64,000 nt of DNA from Candidatus Latescibacterota bacterium (GTDB lineage: Bacteria; Latescibacterota; UBA2968; UBA8231), in the NCBI GenBank assembly GCA_965215195.1, contig CBDCDC010000002.1, forward strand, positions 2,176,001 through 2,240,000. The letters are read 5' to 3'. This document shows, piece by piece, positions 1 to 13,252 of this stretch (within the stretch, counting starts at the first letter, position 1; every line of letters starts with the position of its first letter). The notes beneath the pieces are model-generated. The model worked only from the letters and a program-made list of their open reading frames with translations, was not told where the DNA came from and did not search any database. Position numbers and translations under genes: made by a program.

Positions 1-563
1 CAAGTCCATTCTCGATGGGTGGTGCGTTCGATTATGTCATCCCAAGTACGCACAAGCTCAGGTGTGTGAATCGGGTAGGAGTATTCGGGCATAGTATAGG
101 CCGATTTTATCCAAACCACATCAACCCCTTCCAACGCCGCCGTTAAGCACATCGTGGGACGGGAATCTACGATAGCGAGGTCGGGCTTCAAGCGGCCAAC
201 CAGCGCCCGCTCGGCTTCCACGCTCTGATGGATCAACGAGTCGCAGTCCGCCTCATTCGTGCCAAAATCCAGTACTGCTCCCAAGTCTTGTATCGGCGTG
301 GCGAGGTCGTGCAGTGGGAACTCCGCTTGCCGGACTGGGTCCGCAAACGAACCCGTGCCCGCAAACTCAACTGTGTATCCTCGACGGCGGAGCGTCGTAC
401 CCACCACCAAAGCACGATGCACAGAAGCACCATCAAAGCCGTGAAAGAAGATCAGTATTGAAACTCGGTTTCGATCAAGCCGGTGCGAGCGTTCCTTTTC
501 CTCAAGACGTCTGATGACCTTGAAGAGTCCGGCTACGGTCCGCTGTCGTATTGCGTTGAACAT
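1..563 (-). CDS. GT-B fold glycosyltransferase (GT1/MGT-like), N-terminal part; runs off the window start
   Basis: Not in the ORF track. Manual translation from ATG 563 (SD AAAGGAGG upstream) is open to base 1: MFNAIRQ...ILIFFHGFDGASVHRALVVGTTLRRRGYTVEFAG...ERALVGRLKPDLAIVDSRPTMCLTAALEGVDVVWI. This matches the GT1 N-terminal Rossmann pattern (L..RG..V.FA; kPDlvi.D). Confidence 0.75.
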   Translation of the reverse strand, partial: MFNAIRQRTVAGLFKVIRRLEEKERSHRLDRNRVSILIFFHGFDGASVHRALVVGTTLRRRGYTVEFAGTGSFADPVRQAEFPLHDLATPIQDLGAVLDFGTNEADCDSLIHQSVEAERALVGRLKPDLAIVDSRPTMCLTAALEGVDVVWIKSAYTMPEYSYPIHTPELVRTWDDIIERTTHREWT

Positions 564-574
564 CGTCCCCTCCT

Positions 575-1780
575 TTATATTCGGCCGCTCGTCCGCAGCA
601 GCTCTTCTACGAACTCAACCTTGTCGTCTAGCTGAAGTTCGCGGTATAGTTCCAAGGCTTGCCGCCACTGAAGTACGGCATCAAAAGGAGCCTGATTCGA
701 CGCATAGACCCGCCCCAAGCGAACTCTAACGTCGGCTACGGCCTCCAAGTCCGATACCTTCACAAACAATTGCACCGCCTGCCGATACGCTTCCTCGGCC
801 GCCTTAAGGTTTTCAACGTCCATATAGTTATCGCCCAAAAGAGTCGCTTGTGCCGCCCGGCCTCTGTTGTCTCCAATCGCGTCAAACAGTTCTCTAGCCT
901 GCTGGAACAACGCCGTGGCTTCTCGCGGGTCGCCTTTCTCTCGCAACACTTGCCCAAGACCGCTCACGGTGCGAGCCTCAAACTGTTTATTGCCTAATTT
1001 TCGTTGAATGGCCAGCGTCCGACAGTACATGGCTTCCGCCTCATCAAACTGACCCATCTGTCTATATACGCCGCCCAAGACGCTGTAATGATGAGCCAAT
1101 CCCTCGTCGCGCTGGAGCCGCTCCTCAATCGCAAGGCCTTTTTTGAGGATGGCTTCGGCGTCGGCTAAACGCTGCTGTCCAAGATAGACCATACCCAAGC
1201 CCTGATAATGGCCGGAAACACCTGGTAGATCGTCGAGTTCTTGACACACTTTTAGTCCCTGCTGGAAGTAGGCTTCGGCCTCTTCCGGTTTGTTCTGCTG
1301 GAGCGCCAACCGTCCCAAGTTGCCGCATTCTTCCGCCCAATAGGCCCTATTGCCCAACGCCTCGTGAAGTTGCTGAGCGCGGGTGTGCAGTTCTCGTGCC
1401 TCGGCGATTTTTCCTTGCAGATGAGCGACAAAGCCTCTGTTGCTATAGCTGACAGCCAGACGCTCCTCATCGCGGCGTTCATTATTGATCGCAAAGGCTT
1501 TATTGAGATAGTCAACCGCCTCGTCCATCCGTCCCATGACTTGGTACATCAGTCCCAAGCCGCTACACGCATCGGCTTCTAGCTCGTCATCTTGCCACTG
1601 CCGTCCCTTTTTAAGGACTCTTTTATACAGGGCTTCGGCTCTGTCGAGTTTCCCTTGTTCCTTGTAATAGCGCCCTAACAGGAGACAAGCCCTCACTTGG
1701 AGGCGCATATTGCGGTCTTGTACGGCCCACGCCCGCTGGATCGCAACGTCGCATTCGGGAATTAACGGAATGATTTCCAT
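575..1780 (-). CDS. Tetratricopeptide repeat protein
   Basis: About 9 tandem ~40-aa TPR units (e.g. A..YSNRG...HLQG...EA..LH.RA); SD GAGGAGG upstream. Confidence 0.9.
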   Translation of the reverse strand: MEIIPLIPECDVAIQRAWAVQDRNMRLQVRACLLLGRYYKEQGKLDRAEALYKRVLKKGRQWQDDELEADACSGLGLMYQVMGRMDEAVDYLNKAFAINNERRDEERLAVSYSNRGFVAHLQGKIAEARELHTRAQQLHEALGNRAYWAEECGNLGRLALQQNKPEEAEAYFQQGLKVCQELDDLPGVSGHYQGLGMVYLGQQRLADAEAILKKGLAIEERLQRDEGLAHHYSVLGGVYRQMGQFDEAEAMYCRTLAIQRKLGNKQFEARTVSGLGQVLREKGDPREATALFQQARELFDAIGDNRGRAAQATLLGDNYMDVENLKAAEEAYRQAVQLFVKVSDLEAVADVRVRLGRVYASNQAPFDAVLQWRQALELYRELQLDDKVEFVEELLRTSGRI

Positions 1781-1801
1781 ACCTCGCAGTTCCCTCCTCG
1801 G

Positions 1802-9947: not shown

Positions 9948-10087
9948 ACTGAGGCCCCACCATCCCACTTTCGCTCCACAGCATTGAGGCGGGCGAAAGA
10001 AGCCGCGGGATAGACTTAAAGTAAAGCGACCCGCTTTGAAGACTTGGCTTTTGAGTTAGCTCCGGGGCCCTTGTAAAACGTTGCCCT

Positions 10088-13000
10088 CTACTTGCCCGTG
10101 CCGGGCTTTTTCGGTCGGCTTAGTCCATAATGGCGCATGCGGGAGCGCAGCCGTTCCGGGTTCATATTCAACACTTTGGCCGCGCCGCGCTCGCCATAGA
10201 CCATCCAGTTGGTCGCTTGCAGGGCCGCCACAATCTGCTGCTTTTCGTCCATGCCTTCGGCCGGTCCCGTCGCTTCGTCCCCCTCCCCGGTTGGCCGTGC
10301 CGCCGGCGCGAGCAACTTCCTTTCGTCCGCGTCTCCGGCTTGTTGCGCAACCTCCAGCGGCACATCCACCACTCGGATCACGCCCCCCTCGCACAACAAG
10401 ACCGCCCGATGAATCACGTGCTCCAACTCGCGCACATTCCCCGGCCAAGCATACGTCTGCAAGTACGCGACCACCCCGTCGGCTATCGTCGGTGCCGGCC
10501 GCTTGAGCTCTTGGGCATACTGCTCGGCAAAGTGCGCCACGAGCGCCGGTAGATCCTCGGGCCGCTGCCGCAGCGACGGAAGCGTTAACGTGAAGGTGTC
10601 TAAGCGGTAGAACAGGTCTTCGCGGAACGTACGTTCGGCGATGGCCTGCCGCAGGTCGCGGTTGGTCGCCGCAATGACCCGCACATCCACGGGTATAGGC
10701 CGCTGGCCGCCGACGCGGGTCAGGGTCTTCTCCTCTAAGATGTTCAGCAGCACCCGCTGAGACTCCAACGGCAAATCGCCGATTTCGTCCAAAAAGAGGG
10801 TGCCGCCATCGGCCAGTTCAAAGCGGCCAAGCTGGCGAGCATGGGCACTGGTAAAGGCCCCTTTCTCGTGGCCGAACAGTTCGTTTTCGATCAGTCCTGC
10901 CGGGAACGCCCCGCAATTGACGTGGATGAAAGGACGATCTCGGCGGGGGCTGGTGGCGTGGATGGTCTGCGCCAGCACGCCCTTGCCCGTGCCGGTCTCG
11001 CCCAGCACCAGCACCGTCATATCGGTCTCAGCGACCTGCGAGACTTTTTTTAGCGCCTCGTGCATGGCCGGACTGTGGCTCGGCACAACATGCTCAGCCG
11101 CCCCGCCCAGTAGCTCTTCAAAGGCTCGGAGGCGTTCGGTTTTGCTATCCGGGTGGACTTGTATAGCCAAGCCGACCACCTCGGACCGCAGGCTATCGCG
11201 GTCTATGGCCTGCACCTCAAAGCGGTAGTCGCCCACCGGCAGGGCCTTGTACGCCACCGCATCCGCGGCCGTGAACGCGCTCCATGGTTCGGCGGGGCCG
11301 TACCCTACCAAGCGATGGCGATAGCGCATCTGACTCGCACCGCTGCGGAAACTGATGCCTTGGAAGTGAAGGCGGATTTCCGGGGTGTCCTCGGAGCAGG
11401 ATACAGCGTCGGGCATGGCCAAGCGGTGCCCGGCCAGCACCTCGCGGATCACCAACCGCGGCGGCGTGTCGCCCGGCTGGTAGGCCACCAGCCCCGCCCG
11501 CGTCCCAAACCACACCCGACCATCGCGGTCGCACAAAACCGCCTCGACGATGTTGCCGAGCGCAGACGGCCCCAAGCGGATGCTCTGGAAGGTCTCGCCG
11601 TCGTAGCGGAGCACACCCCCGCCGCTGGTCCCAATCCAAATATGGCCCTGCGAGTCGGCCGTCAGCGCCAAGATGCCGTTGGCCGACAGCCCGGAATTGG
11701 TGGTGGTAAAGTGGCGCACCTGCCCGGACGAGAGGTCGAAGGCGAAAAGCCCCTTCGCCGTGCCGACCCACAACGTATTTTGGTGCTCCCACAACACGTG
11801 GACGTAGGCCATCGCCACGGCCTCGGCCCTCGCCACGGGGCGGAATTGACCCTCCTTATAGCAATAGAGCGCTGGTACGCGGCCGAAGAAACCGATCCAG
11901 AACACGCCGTTTTGGTCTTGCAGCAGGGCGCGGCACTCGTCGCCCTCCCACGCGTCGAAGGGCGTGAAGCGGTTGTCTTCTATCCAGCCAAAGCGGCCCT
12001 GGAGCGTACCAAGCCATATACGCCCTTGCTCATCTTCGCACAGCCCGGTGATTTTTTCCGAGTAGGTTTCGCCATCCACCGCGATCGCGTGCGGCGTCTG
12101 ACCCTCCCACTGGTACACCCGGCCGCTCTCCCCCCCGCTCCACACCTGCCCCTCGCCATCCACCATCAGCGCCGAAACGGTTTCAACCTGATCGAGCGGA
12201 CGAATCCGACCGTTTTCCATGCAGGCCATGCCGCTCATCGTGCCAAGCCACAGCCGGCCGGCCGCGTCTTCGCCCAAGTGGAGCACCTCCCGGTCGGGCA
12301 AGCCATTGACTTCGGTGTAGTACTGGATGCTGACCGGATCGCAAAAGACCAGCCCGCCCCCCCAAAGCCCGATCCAGATATTGCCCTCGCGGTCTTCATA
12401 CGTCAGGCGCGTACTCGAAAAGTCAACGTCCAGCAAGTTCGTGGAGAAATGATGCCACGCCTGCCCGTCGTAGCAGATCACCCCTCGACGCGCCATCCAC
12501 AGCCAACCCCGAGCGTCAGCCCGCACGTGCCGCGTCCCCTGCTGCCCGGTGTGTGCGGCCTTACGGCCTACGTCAATGAAGGCCAACTGCTCAGCGTCCG
12601 GATCGTACCGGCCAATCAAGGCTTCGCTACCCGTATAGTGGAAGGCAATCCACAGCGAGCCGGCGGGGTCTTGGGCGAATTTCCACGGCCAGCGCACCGC
12701 CCGCTCGCTGGTATCCATGCGTCGCCCATCCAAGCTGAGGACGCCTCGGGTCCACGTCGCCAGCCACGTGGTGCCGCCCGCGTCCGTAGCCATATCGTAC
12801 ACCCGCCCCAGCGGTTGGCCGCCCACATGCGTTAGGCACTTTGTGCAGCGGCCATCGGCAAACCACGCCACGCCCGCGCCGGTCAGAGCCAACACCGAGC
12901 CATCCGGCTGGGCTTGCAGCCCCAAAATCTCGTTGGAAGGCAGCCCGTGCTCCGTGGTGTACACCTCAAAGCCGCGCCCGTCGTACGCGGCGATTCCCCC

Positions 13001-13252
13001 GCCCAACGTGCCGAACAGCAGCCGCCCGTCGGCTTCCTCGGCAATGGCCATGACCGTCAGATTCGGCAGGCCATCTTCGAGGCCAAAGCGATCGAATCGC
13101 GCACTGTCGAACCGGCTGACGCCGCCGTCGGCCGTGGCGATCCAGAGAAAGCCTTGGCGGTCTTGGTAGAGGTCTTCGACGTGCATCCCGCCCAGCCCGT
13201 CAAAGACGGTGTACTGGGTGCTTAACACATGCTCAAAGGATAGGGCGCTCAT
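10088..13252 (-). CDS. Sigma-54-dependent Fis-family activator with N-terminal two-component-regulator propeller and YYY domains
   Basis: Repeated D..G.lWigT..G propeller blades; YYY domain (YRHRL...[15 protein letters not shown]); [46 protein letters not shown]-terminal HTH. Confidence 0.93.

Follow-up and report, generated by a model that had tools for sequence, protein, structure and literature searches.

Background

Peptidases of family A24 cut the leaders of prepilins, Flp pilins and archaellins, the enzymes being PilD, TadV/FppA and the archaeal FlaK, PibD and EppA, and such prepilin-type peptidases are usually treated as markers of type IV filaments. In a stretch of 64,000 nucleotides from a Candidatus Latescibacterota genome (hereafter the window, C2:2176001-2240000; the host genome has 6.13 Mb, 60% G+C and two contigs, and is 95% complete), we found a gene of this family among genes for membrane-anchored redox proteins and for small Cys-rich proteins with a prepilin-like leader. 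Class III processing by A24 enzymes is the closest known system to this locus, and the substrates of the locus are not type IV pilins.

A class III signal is defined, in the passages of PMC4471445 cited here, by a hydrophilic leader of 6-26 residues, a conserved Gly, about 21 hydrophobic residues directly after it, and a Glu at position +5. The same passages describe the Sulfolobus bindosome, in which non-pilin sugar-binding proteins carry class III signals and which still needs a type IV filament-like system. The leaders of Flp prepilins end in Gly. For these prepilins the processing site is given as G/XXXXE(Y) (PMC12075869, in the part cited). Hybrid systems of thioredoxin-like and ApbE-flavinylated proteins are also on record, together with DUF3570, DUF4266 and often DsbD; the part of that source used here also defines the flavinylation motif as of the [S/T]GA[S/T] type (Meheust et al. 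2021, PMC8238504).

Three further systems invite comparison. Normal cargo of the type IX secretion system (T9SS) has a plain Sec signal. Glycocin clusters of the sublancin type encode a Cys-rich precursor with a double-Gly leader, a GT2 S-glycosyltransferase, two thiol-disulfide oxidoreductases and a C39 ABC exporter. The third is the class of radical-SAM/SPASM Cys-rich RiPPs (ribosomally synthesised and post-translationally modified peptides); we know of no described RiPP class with an A24 leader peptidase, and our literature search found none. That search, which covered titles and abstract openings and had most subscription journals outside its coverage, also found no A24 peptidase paired with Cys-rich non-pilin precursors. 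One candidate that it raised, the 'srp RiPPs', is, according to the part of the source cited, a group of azol(in)e proteusins and unrelated (bioRxiv 10.1101/2023.06.09.544420).

A conserved module around an A24 peptidase

The core of the locus is a module that is conserved in Ca. Latescibacterota yet unannotated there. It consists of an RnfG/NqrC-like flavin mononucleotide (FMN) protein with a CxxC motif, two anchored thioredoxin-like (Trx) proteins, a FlaK-like A24 peptidase of the GxGD type, and Cys-rich leader proteins. In our reading, to which we give a probability of roughly 0.55, the module would be dedicated to the maturation of small, hypervariable, disulfide-rich secreted proteins: the peptidase would remove a class III-like leader and the redox trio would fold the products, with no type IV filament involved. 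The core features in the window are as follows (positions without a contig prefix are those of the window; aa, amino acids; ORF, open reading frame; AF2, AlphaFold2):

9289-9570, minus strand: precursor, 93 aa, 10 Cys; ATG at 9570, stop at 9289 (ORF and leader alignment)
5927-6748, minus strand: long-form leader protein, 273 aa, 14 Cys, with T9SS type A domain (TIGR04183, 27.4 bits, cut-off 23)
5290-5880, minus strand: RnfG/NqrC-like FMN-binding-domain protein, 196 aa, membrane-anchored (motif, AF2 model, Foldseek)
4119-5276, minus strand: A24 / GxGD aspartic membrane peptidase, 385 aa, FlaK-like (PF01478, alignment, VIA-align)
3549-4100, minus strand: thioredoxin-fold protein (ResA/TlpA-like), 183 aa, anchored, CDAC motif (Pfam, NCBIfam, alignment, hydropathy)
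3232-3552, minus strand: second anchored thioredoxin-fold protein, N part, CPYC motif (Pfam, NCBIfam, tblastn)
about 2008-3231, plus strand: insertion element, 1224 bp, with HTH_32 and DDE_3 ORFs (genome copies, transposase domains)
1802-2006, minus strand: second thioredoxin-fold protein, C part (Pfam, NCBIfam, tblastn)

A preliminary description of the locus, made from the sequence alone, had listed these genes in one co-oriented run with a sigma-54 activator, a palindromic array, a promoter and further genes; ORF, Pfam and NCBIfam scans recovered every listed element, all on the minus strand. It had also put the gaps from the FMN gene onward below 25 nt. The measured gaps are 13, 18, -4, 21 and 11 nt, but 1226 nt lie between the two ORF pieces of the second redoxin, where the claim fails because an insertion element splits that gene.

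The precursor family and its leader

The 93-aa precursor begins at a start codon (9570) preceded by a good ribosome-binding site. Its leader, MDSLREFFTSSSG, closes with the Gly that is invariant in the family. Next come a short linker and, at about residues 20-40, a hydrophobic segment; residues of the A-x-A type and a 10-Cys core make up the rest. The 273-aa long form has the same leader and hydrophobic segment, then a 14-Cys region and the T9SS type A sorting domain. The genome holds 12 leader-bearing ORFs of two types, M.SLREF..SSSGLAP.RQGL... and ...LVEFATSTSGHVEPRQGL...., called A and B below, and distant genera follow the same precursor plan with other residues, for example LTEFVTSESGYVSPRAGL and FFLSESGFASPHKAL.

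Two parts can be distinguished ahead of the core. Part (a) is a conserved hydrophilic leader of about 13-25 residues with an invariant terminal Gly (F-x5-G, typically F..SESG); part (b) comprises a mixed stretch of 7-9 residues, about 20 hydrophobic ones and then A-x-A. In an alignment of 18 diverse leaders, F7 and G13 are the only positions invariant in all 18, and the A-x-A-type residues just before the first Cys are conserved. Part (a) resembles a class III (prepilin-type) leader in sequence, being hydrophilic, within the range of 6-26 residues and closed by a conserved Gly (G13, 18/18), and part (b) resembles a class I signal peptide. Because this class I-like hydrophobic segment and A-x-A follow the leader, the small Cys-rich products are probably released into the periplasm. 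The pattern F..[DS]E.G may resemble the Flp prepilin leader.

The mature cargo is a multi-Cys domain of 40-60 residues. Fifty-three of 66 distinct family members are at most 135 aa long, with a modal count of 8 Cys, and the other 13 are long forms, some with an added T9SS domain. Among 20 small A-type members (190 pairs), identity is 85% in the leader and 34% in the core; this variability of the peptides suggests an interaction with other organisms.

Clustering of database relatives of the leader family at 90% gave 59 short and 298 longer sequences, and at 50% identity 161 clusters among 1.84 billion representatives. All of the listed relatives are unnamed or 'hypothetical', and the only Pfam domains on them are the T9SS/FlgD_ig tails of long forms. 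Two impurities of the leader profile were recognised, a 993-aa repeat protein that is a false positive (P0187) and a chimeric gene call (P0204). An ESM Atlas search with the leader gave best scores of 0.77 and 0.75, under the level of a lead.

The peptidase

The window peptidase matches PF01478 at 35.0 bits against a cut-off of 26.5 (36.7 bits in the genome scan). Both catalytic Asp are present, the second within a GxGD-type motif: across 14 homologues, some with as little as 26% identity, D33 and G92-D93 never vary, and W89-x-x-G92-D93-x-K is invariant or nearly so. On this sequence evidence the protein is a member of family A24. It carries an inserted soluble domain at about residues 265-349. 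The NCBIfam model FlaK_Arch matches it with E 1.8e-7 and 31 bits, far under that model's cut-off of 330. Only two genes in the host genome match PF01478, and both lie inside modules of the kind described here.

An AF2 model of the peptidase has a predicted local distance difference test (pLDDT) score of 70.9. In a wide VIA-align search with this model, FlaK (3s0x_B) came first, with Z 10.7, a root-mean-square deviation (rmsd) of 4.5 and 167 of 186 residues aligned, and the next row had Z 6.7; a Z of 10.7 is too low to exclude a generic helical-bundle match, for which values under about 13 can occur. Predicting the complex of the peptidase with the leader gave a score of 0.49, against 0.01 for the best of three controls, with contact agreement among runs of at least 93% and a partner pLDDT of at least 69. 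Of 80 solved complexes, 58 pass the mark for this score, as do 2 of 110 mismatched pairs, and scores of 0.60 or less include just 7 of the 80 solved complexes but both passing mismatches; these benchmark counts are only rough here, our own alignments having served as input. The prediction thus lends weak support to binding of the leader by the peptidase.

Recurrence within the genome and across the phylum

A local tblastn search of the host genome found three paralogous modules (33-59% identity), each with an activator, an FMN protein, two Trx proteins and leader genes. The second (C2:2358904-2376032) runs from the activator (59%) through A24 (39%), the FMN protein and two Trx genes to alternating leader peptides and FG-GAP proteins. 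The third (C2:2762775-2782720) has the activator (33%), FMN, two Trx and leader proteins, without A24.

The long A24 subfamily occurs in 31 of 168 genomes of the phylum and in 7 of 49 genera. Leader genes occur in 36 of these genomes, both genes in 31 and A24 alone in none, and the same 7 genera hold both; since related genomes are not independent, such co-occurrence counts overstate the statistics. We defined A24 places as matches of more than 200 residues and a neighbourhood as 6 kb. At the 38 distinct Latescibacterota places so obtained, a leader ORF lies within 6 kb at 33, at least one Trx homologue at 36 and an FMN homologue at 26; the five places that lack a leader comprise two with full flanks (extra copies in genome G102) and three with cut flanks. 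The gene order FMN-TrxA-TrxB-A24-precursor, with small gaps, prevails in most Latescibacterota loci outside the A-type cluster of the window.

These components (A24 peptidase, redoxins, flavoprotein, and Cys-rich ORFs that carry the M.S.REF..SSSG leader) recur together, three times in the host genome and in 7 genera, as the preliminary description had expected. This supports the view that the module is a recurrent unit and not a chance neighbourhood.

Absence of filament machinery

No match to PF00437 (ATPase of the type II secretion system, T2SS-E), PF00482 (T2SS-F) or PF07963 (N-methyl pilin) was found in the host genome at its 95% completeness; of 14 control genomes, 13, 13 and 8, respectively, were positive in the same searches. 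Without these components there is no type IV filament for the peptidases to serve. The preliminary description had seen no pilus machinery nearby; the absence extends to the whole genome, where the A24 genes sit in modules. Of the 168 phylum genomes, 52 have a T2SS-E match, among them only 4 of the 31 with A24. The Flp_Fap family (PF04964) matched none of the 168 phylum genomes, none of five outgroup genomes and none of nine peptides at E up to 10. A scan of all fetched loci and the genome for the pilin motif G-xx-[AS]-x-E-[YF] returned merely two unrelated matches.

With class III systems the module shares a GxGD peptidase, a FlaK-like fold and a leader whose invariant Gly is followed by a hydrophobic helix, and the bindosome, in the passages cited above, is a precedent for non-pilin substrates. 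Unlike them, it has no match to an assembly ATPase, a platform protein or an N-methyl or Flp pilin; its leader has a gap of 7-9 residues between Gly and helix, no conserved Glu+5, and an A-x-A after the helix; and its cargo is multi-Cys, in part T9SS-tailed, with periplasmic redox genes alongside.

The same comparison bears on another explanation, in which the products are pilin-like or anchored subunits. After the A24 cut, the helix would hold the Cys-rich domain at the inner membrane, uncut by signal peptidase I, or the subunits would enter an unrecognised assembly that works without a T2SS-E type ATPase. An invariant Gly closes the leader and a helix of about 20 hydrophobic residues follows, dedicated A24 genes lie alongside, and the archaeal bindosome offers a precedent (PMC4471445, same passages). 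Set against this are the lack of ATPase, platform and N-methyl pilin genes in the host genome, the A-x-A-type residues conserved just before the first Cys, the spacing of 7-9 residues between Gly and helix together with the missing Glu+5, and the T9SS domain of the long forms, which implies periplasmic release. We consider anchored subunits improbable and release of the products the better account.

The redox proteins

The motifs RHDIxCxxCxD and DG[IL][ST]GAT are invariant in 10 of 10 homologues of the FMN protein, the latter being of the [S/T]GA[S/T] flavinylation type. The AF2 model (pLDDT 77) has as its top Foldseek matches RnfG 7zc6_G (E 9.6e-4, probability 1.00), 9eri_G, 4xa7 and 4xhf_A, with NqrC chains among them, and a profile of the protein against PDB sequences gave nothing meaningful. 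The FMN-binding CxxC protein of the preliminary description therefore stands by motif and RnfG/NqrC-like fold, but not by profile, for which Pfam and NCBIfam gave no match. The genome encodes an ApbE flavin transferase (PF02424, 273.9 bits, C2:1747201-1748019). By hydropathy, the FMN protein and both thioredoxin-fold proteins each have one N-terminal transmembrane (TM)-like anchor.

Like the known flavinylated systems, the module has an anchored protein with a flavinylation-type motif and an RnfG/NqrC-like fold, adjacent Trx-like genes, and ApbE in the genome. It is unlike them in that the FMN domain has its own RHDIxCxxCxD, no DsbD is part of the module, and the set is tied to A24 and Cys-rich clients. 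Searches for DsbB and VKOR found no match in the host genome (95% complete). Its one DsbD_TM gene lies outside the module; 30 of the 31 genomes in the genus have such a gene, with or without the module. An FMN protein with its own CxxC and two thioredoxin-fold proteins is accordingly a candidate for a new periplasmic disulfide-forming route.

The anchors also allow the view that A24 cuts the FMN and Trx proteins themselves, or other membrane proteins, the Cys-rich proteins being clients of the redox trio only. Each of the three redox proteins has one N-terminal TM-like segment, the order FMN-TrxA-TrxB-A24 with small gaps places them next to the peptidase outside the window's A-type cluster, and in the second Trx a Gly immediately precedes the anchor. 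Across homologues, though, no conserved Gly motif precedes the FMN or first-Trx anchors, and in Poribacteria and Anaerolineales A24 pairs with leader genes where redox genes are missing. We give this view very little credence and retain the leader proteins as the probable substrates.

Both CxxC redoxins named in the preliminary description are present, the second in two pieces, 3232-3552 (N) and 1802-2006 (C). The insertion element between them has two overlapping transposase ORFs and six copies in the genome, five at 100% identity, including that of the window, and one at 99.8%. A search of public runs with positions 3300-10100 listed four, all DNA-type contig runs of one study, and no RNA run; contigs from three of the four public runs join 2006 to 3227 without the element, with one contig each and a shorter flank of 30 nt. 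This hints at an allele with an intact second redoxin in the sampled populations. A second-redoxin homologue in a distant genus (L038:7517-9469, genome G089) is likewise split, into N 7517-7822 and C 9170-9469; the 439-aa ORF between its halves (7815-9134) is transposase-like by eye.

Probable sigma-54 regulation

Upstream of the precursor gene lie the elements of a sigma-54-dependent control system, and a stem-loop follows the gene:

10088-13252, minus strand: sigma-54 enhancer-binding protein, 1054 aa (Pfam, NCBIfam, hydropathy)
9854-9945, no strand assigned: tandem array of a 19-nt unit, 4.8 copies (repeat search)
9753-9779, minus strand: 11-bp perfect hairpin followed by a T run, between array and promoter (repeat search)
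9716-9730, minus strand: sigma-54 promoter-like site TGGCACGGAACTTGC, -24 GG / -12 GC (pattern match)
9103-9260, minus strand: long stem-loop, its 3' arm running into a U10 tract (folding compared with shuffles)

The promoter-like site TGGCACGGAACTTGC lies about 145 nt upstream of the start codon of the peptide gene. Its pattern has two matches in the window against 0.19 expected, and two were reached in 1 of 100 shuffles. Near-identical sites precede all three small A-type peptide genes of the genome, and the array precedes two of them, with 5 and 3 copies; the B-type peptide genes lack the strict promoter pattern. The array has a period of 19, 4.8 copies and 100% matches, its unit containing the inverted repeat ATACG-N6-CGTAT, and elsewhere in the genome the unit occurs only at C2:2165831-2165871, in three copies upstream of the second A-type peptide gene. 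We infer from this arrangement that the array holds the binding sites of the activator (upstream activating sequences).

The activator combines N-terminal Reg_prop beta-propellers and Y_Y_Y with an AAA+ Sigma54_activat domain (E 6.4e-68) and a C-terminal lid/HTH region. It shows no TM-like segment in hydropathy, so that the double-propeller sensor is read as cytoplasmic. The DNA-binding domain of rpoN is found in the genome as well. The sigma-54 control proposed in the preliminary description is thus complete in its parts, with a promoter, an activator bearing the sigma-54 interaction domain, and rpoN, and the palindromic array upstream of the peptide gene has the 4.8 perfect copies given above. 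Sequence features of this kind make it likely that the small precursor genes are under sigma-54 control.

The proposal of a single sigma-54 operon is not supported, owing to a terminator-like hairpin 3' of the peptide gene. The stem-loop at 9103-9260 has perfect arms of 16 nt (9129-9144 and 9218-9233) and a folding energy of -73 kcal/mol (z -4.42; 0 of 200 shuffles as stable), and resembles an intrinsic terminator or an attenuator. Beyond the peptide gene, the next two gaps measure 222 and 113 nt. Given so stable a stem-loop with U10 after that gene, the promoter may mainly drive the precursor alone.

Several observations accompany these elements. Contigs from the public runs differ in the array. 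One lacks 41 nt, passing from 9888 to 9930, and others have 1-2 extra nt near 9926-9928, so that strains may differ in repeat number. The hairpin at 9753-9779 might terminate transcription that arrives from upstream, or serve as a bending site. TGGCAC-N5-TTGC is matched exactly a second time at 53445-53459 on the plus strand, inside the ORF 52964-54907 or close to it. Pieces of the activator gene, of 32-38 residues at 81-94% identity, adjoin other FG-GAP paralogues at C2:2193291-2193404, 1471572-1471667 and 2160113-2160220, apparently left over from segmental duplication. Between the activator and the next FG-GAP gene, at 13286-14862 on the minus strand, a 470-aa and a 141-aa ORF overlap in different frames; neither matches Pfam, and the two may be one frameshifted gene.

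A cytoplasmic sensor would also fit a peptidase that acts as signal peptide peptidase (SPP) does. Signal peptidase I would cut first, and A24 would then cut the leftover N-in/C-out signal peptide, clearing it or freeing a cytoplasmic N-terminal peptide signal, possibly sensed by the propeller of the activator. A24 enzymes and eukaryotic SPP/presenilin have common GxGD chemistry and type II-oriented substrates, and human SPPL2a is among the weaker fold matches of the A24 model (Z 4.7). The conserved A-x-A site with its hydrophobic segment, the 85% identity of the leader against 34% in the core, the large activator sensor without a TM-like segment and the presence of an activator paralogue with each of the three modules all fit such a role. 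The match to SPPL2a is weak, however, and far under that to FlaK; clearance of signal peptides needs no dedicated, co-evolving enzyme; and activators are not adjacent in most of the distant loci. We regard an SPP-like role as rather unlikely, and continue to favour removal of the leader during maturation.

Secretion cargo and neighbouring genes

The remaining features of the run flank the module:

6862-9066, minus strand: FG-GAP beta-propeller protein, 734 aa, with T9SS type A C-terminal domain (Pfam, NCBIfam)
575-1780, minus strand: TPR protein, 401 aa (Pfam, tblastn)
1-563 (ORF 3-563), minus strand: N-terminus of an 824-aa GT1-like/transglutaminase protein (Pfam, NCBIfam)

What the preliminary description took for a FlgD tail on two of the proteins passes TIGR04183, the T9SS type A sorting domain, with 27.4 and 29.6 bits against a cut-off of 23. 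Of the T9SS translocon, SprA is found in the genome at 499 bits, and PorV-like matches stay below that family's cut-off. The long Cys-rich forms and the FG-GAP proteins thus resemble type A cargo in passing TIGR04183, and the long forms differ from normal cargo, with its plain Sec signal, in their extended leader with an invariant Gly. The FG-GAP protein is read as secreted and has 12 further copies in the genome at 47-72% identity. The family of FG-GAP proteins with T9SS tails has still further copies at about 30% identity, a window member lying at 15069-17261; most copies stand in two arrays (C2:2146084-2193228 and 459240-469196), interleaved with leader, GT2 and DUF4159 genes.

Leftward, the direction in which the preliminary description had proposed to extend the contig, the locus continues well beyond the edge of the window. 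Its GT1-like glycosyltransferase (GT) kept a weak GT1 signal and proved to be the N-terminus of an 824-aa protein with a transglutaminase core (residues 628-736); the GT1 signal of the whole protein is 26.9 bits to TIGR01426 (cut-off 260) and 16.3 bits to PF00201 (cut-off 19.5). Past the edge come a GT2 gene, two genes for DUF4159 proteins and further FG-GAP/T9SS genes. Three paralogues of the TPR protein, at 82-93% identity, lie elsewhere in the genome (C2:2781518, C2:2275049 and C1:801076), one of them beside the third module; the protein is a lineage-specific accessory.

GT1-like/transglutaminase, GT2 and TPR genes adjoin the module solely at loci with the closest A24 relatives (at least 37% identity, mostly in the window's genus), and were not found beside it in 19 more distant Latescibacterota places. 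The glycosylation and the glycocin analogy suggested earlier are therefore not borne out, since the GT genes are not conserved with the module beyond those closest relatives. A Cys-rich precursor beside two thiol-disulfide oxidoreductases and a leader peptidase, with GT genes nearby in the window lineage, does recall the glycocins. The module differs from them in its peptidase family, its Sec-type precursor signals and its single invariant Gly followed by a membrane segment, and no ABC or C39 domain was detected among 20 proteins scanned from the locus, so the likeness is at most a loose analogy.

Related leaders in Poribacteria and Anaerolineales

The Latescibacterota leader hidden Markov model had no match in 48 outgroup A24 places, which served as a specificity control. 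A scan for short, Cys-rich ORFs that include a hydrophobic stretch did reveal related leaders in Poribacteria (L086, L106) and Anaerolineales (L092), next to long A24 genes. The Anaerolineales locus has three, of the form LTDFI.LEDG.IG.KAA, and one Poribacteria genome has 16 matches to a widened leader profile. In L086 and L106 the peptide genes alternate with Kelch or PD40 beta-propeller genes, much as peptide and FG-GAP genes alternate in the window genome, and in L092 and L106 a Radical_SAM and SPASM gene adjoins the peptidase. In the Poribacteria loci L086, L106 and L097, the beta-propeller and other secreted proteins that neighbour the leader peptides share a C-terminal motif of GKL.T.WG.LK type, which may be a sorting signal of Poribacteria.

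These loci bring up a RiPP or bacteriocin pathway, in which cytoplasmic tailoring enzymes (GTs here, radical-SAM/SPASM in Poribacteria and Anaerolineales) would recognise the leader and A24 would be the leader peptidase. As in radical-SAM/SPASM Cys-rich RiPPs, the leader is conserved and the core hypervariable; in L106 and L092 the Radical SAM and SPASM genes directly adjoin the A24 and leader genes, and GT1-like/transglutaminase and GT2 genes follow the module at loci with the closest A24 relatives. When the family was tested as RiPP precursors, an adjoining tailoring enzyme (radical SAM/SPASM) was found solely in the Poribacteria and Anaerolineales loci, the window neighbours being periplasmic redox proteins only. 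Unlike such RiPPs, the module in the window has no radical-SAM gene among the locus proteins scanned, and its leader precedes a membrane segment. GT genes were missing beside the module in the 19 distant places, the GT1 signal is far under family cut-offs, neither a C39/ABC exporter nor a double-Gly leader was seen, and the precursors are Sec-type with periplasmic redox partners. A RiPP pathway therefore has, in our estimate, only a small chance of being right, against which we hold to periplasmic maturation of the leader proteins.

A wider version of our reading is possible, and we put it forward tentatively. A class III-like cut of the FlaK type, then a class I cut, would mature a large and fast-diversifying repertoire of disulfide-rich effectors independently of pili. 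Such a pathway would be common to Latescibacterota, Poribacteria and Anaerolineales, probably through gene transfer, and in Latescibacterota it would be joined to a new, flavin-based system that generates periplasmic disulfides, in which an FMN domain that bears a CxxC of its own, along with two thioredoxin-fold proteins, replaces the missing DsbB/VKOR.

Evidence against the proposed maturation and its possible mechanism

Several results weigh against a dedicated maturation module, beginning with the leader itself. Seven to nine mixed or polar residues (for example LAPMRQG) separate the Gly from the hydrophobic segment, and Glu+5 is present in only 2 of 18 aligned leaders (L045 and L046); by sequence, the leader thus departs from the class III definition in two features, the spacing of Gly and helix and Glu+5. 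Because an A-x-A site follows, signal peptidase I alone could release the product, which leaves the need for an A24 cut unexplained. Nor is the distribution of the genes free of exceptions. For two A24 copies in G102 (L040, L043), leader, Trx and FMN genes are all missing from the 6-kb neighbourhood. A leader match without a full A24 is found in five genomes; by the A24 profile, four of them have no match (G120, G141, G088, G091) and G138 has a fragment; G088 and G091 are 97-98% complete. Genomes G139 and G145 hold only B-type A24, yet all 11 leader genes fetched from them (3 and 8) are A-type, by which a paralogue-specific pairing of A24 type with leader type is rejected. FMN and Trx genes are absent from the Poribacteria and Anaerolineales loci.

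On the protein side, the modest Z of the peptidase model is joined by a Foldseek search of that model against the PDB with no match at E <= 0.001, and by an A24 profile search of PDB sequences with none. The FMN protein has modest Foldseek E-values (best 9.6e-4) with high rmsd values, and neither Pfam nor NCBIfam has a family that matches it at E <= 0.01. Proteins of the ResA/TlpA type usually act as reductants, so that the redox direction may differ from the one proposed below, and the second redoxin of the window is broken by the insertion element.

With these points counted, we propose the following mechanism. The genes, their motifs and folds, their conservation and co-occurrence, and the lack of pilus genes are observed; all cuts, the direction of the redox steps, the route of export and the control of the genes are what we infer. 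The precursor would insert N-in/C-out. The FlaK-like GxGD peptidase would clip the leader after the Gly on the cytoplasmic face, and signal peptidase I would free the Cys-rich domain into the periplasm. There the two anchored thioredoxin-fold proteins would form and shuffle disulfides among 6-10 cysteines, with the RnfG/NqrC-like protein, presumably covalently flavinylated and bearing its own CxxC, as their redox partner. T9SS-tailed long forms would continue to the cell surface, and the short forms, encoded beside beta-propeller T9SS cargo, may act with those proteins. The cytoplasmic sigma-54 activator, bound to the 19-nt palindrome array, would switch on the small precursor genes.

Significance

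If this reading is correct, a conserved, filament-free A24 subfamily that works on non-pilin Cys-rich leader proteins would widen the known bacterial roles of the family. It would also add a new precursor family of about 160 clusters at 50% identity that is easily searched for. In a genome in which searches gave neither DsbB nor VKOR, the flavoprotein with its own CxxC and the two adjacent thioredoxin-fold proteins offer a testable candidate for a new periplasmic disulfide route. Finally, the cores are hypervariable and, in two phyla, the peptides are paired with beta-propeller surface proteins, both of which suggest that the peptides serve interactions with other cells.

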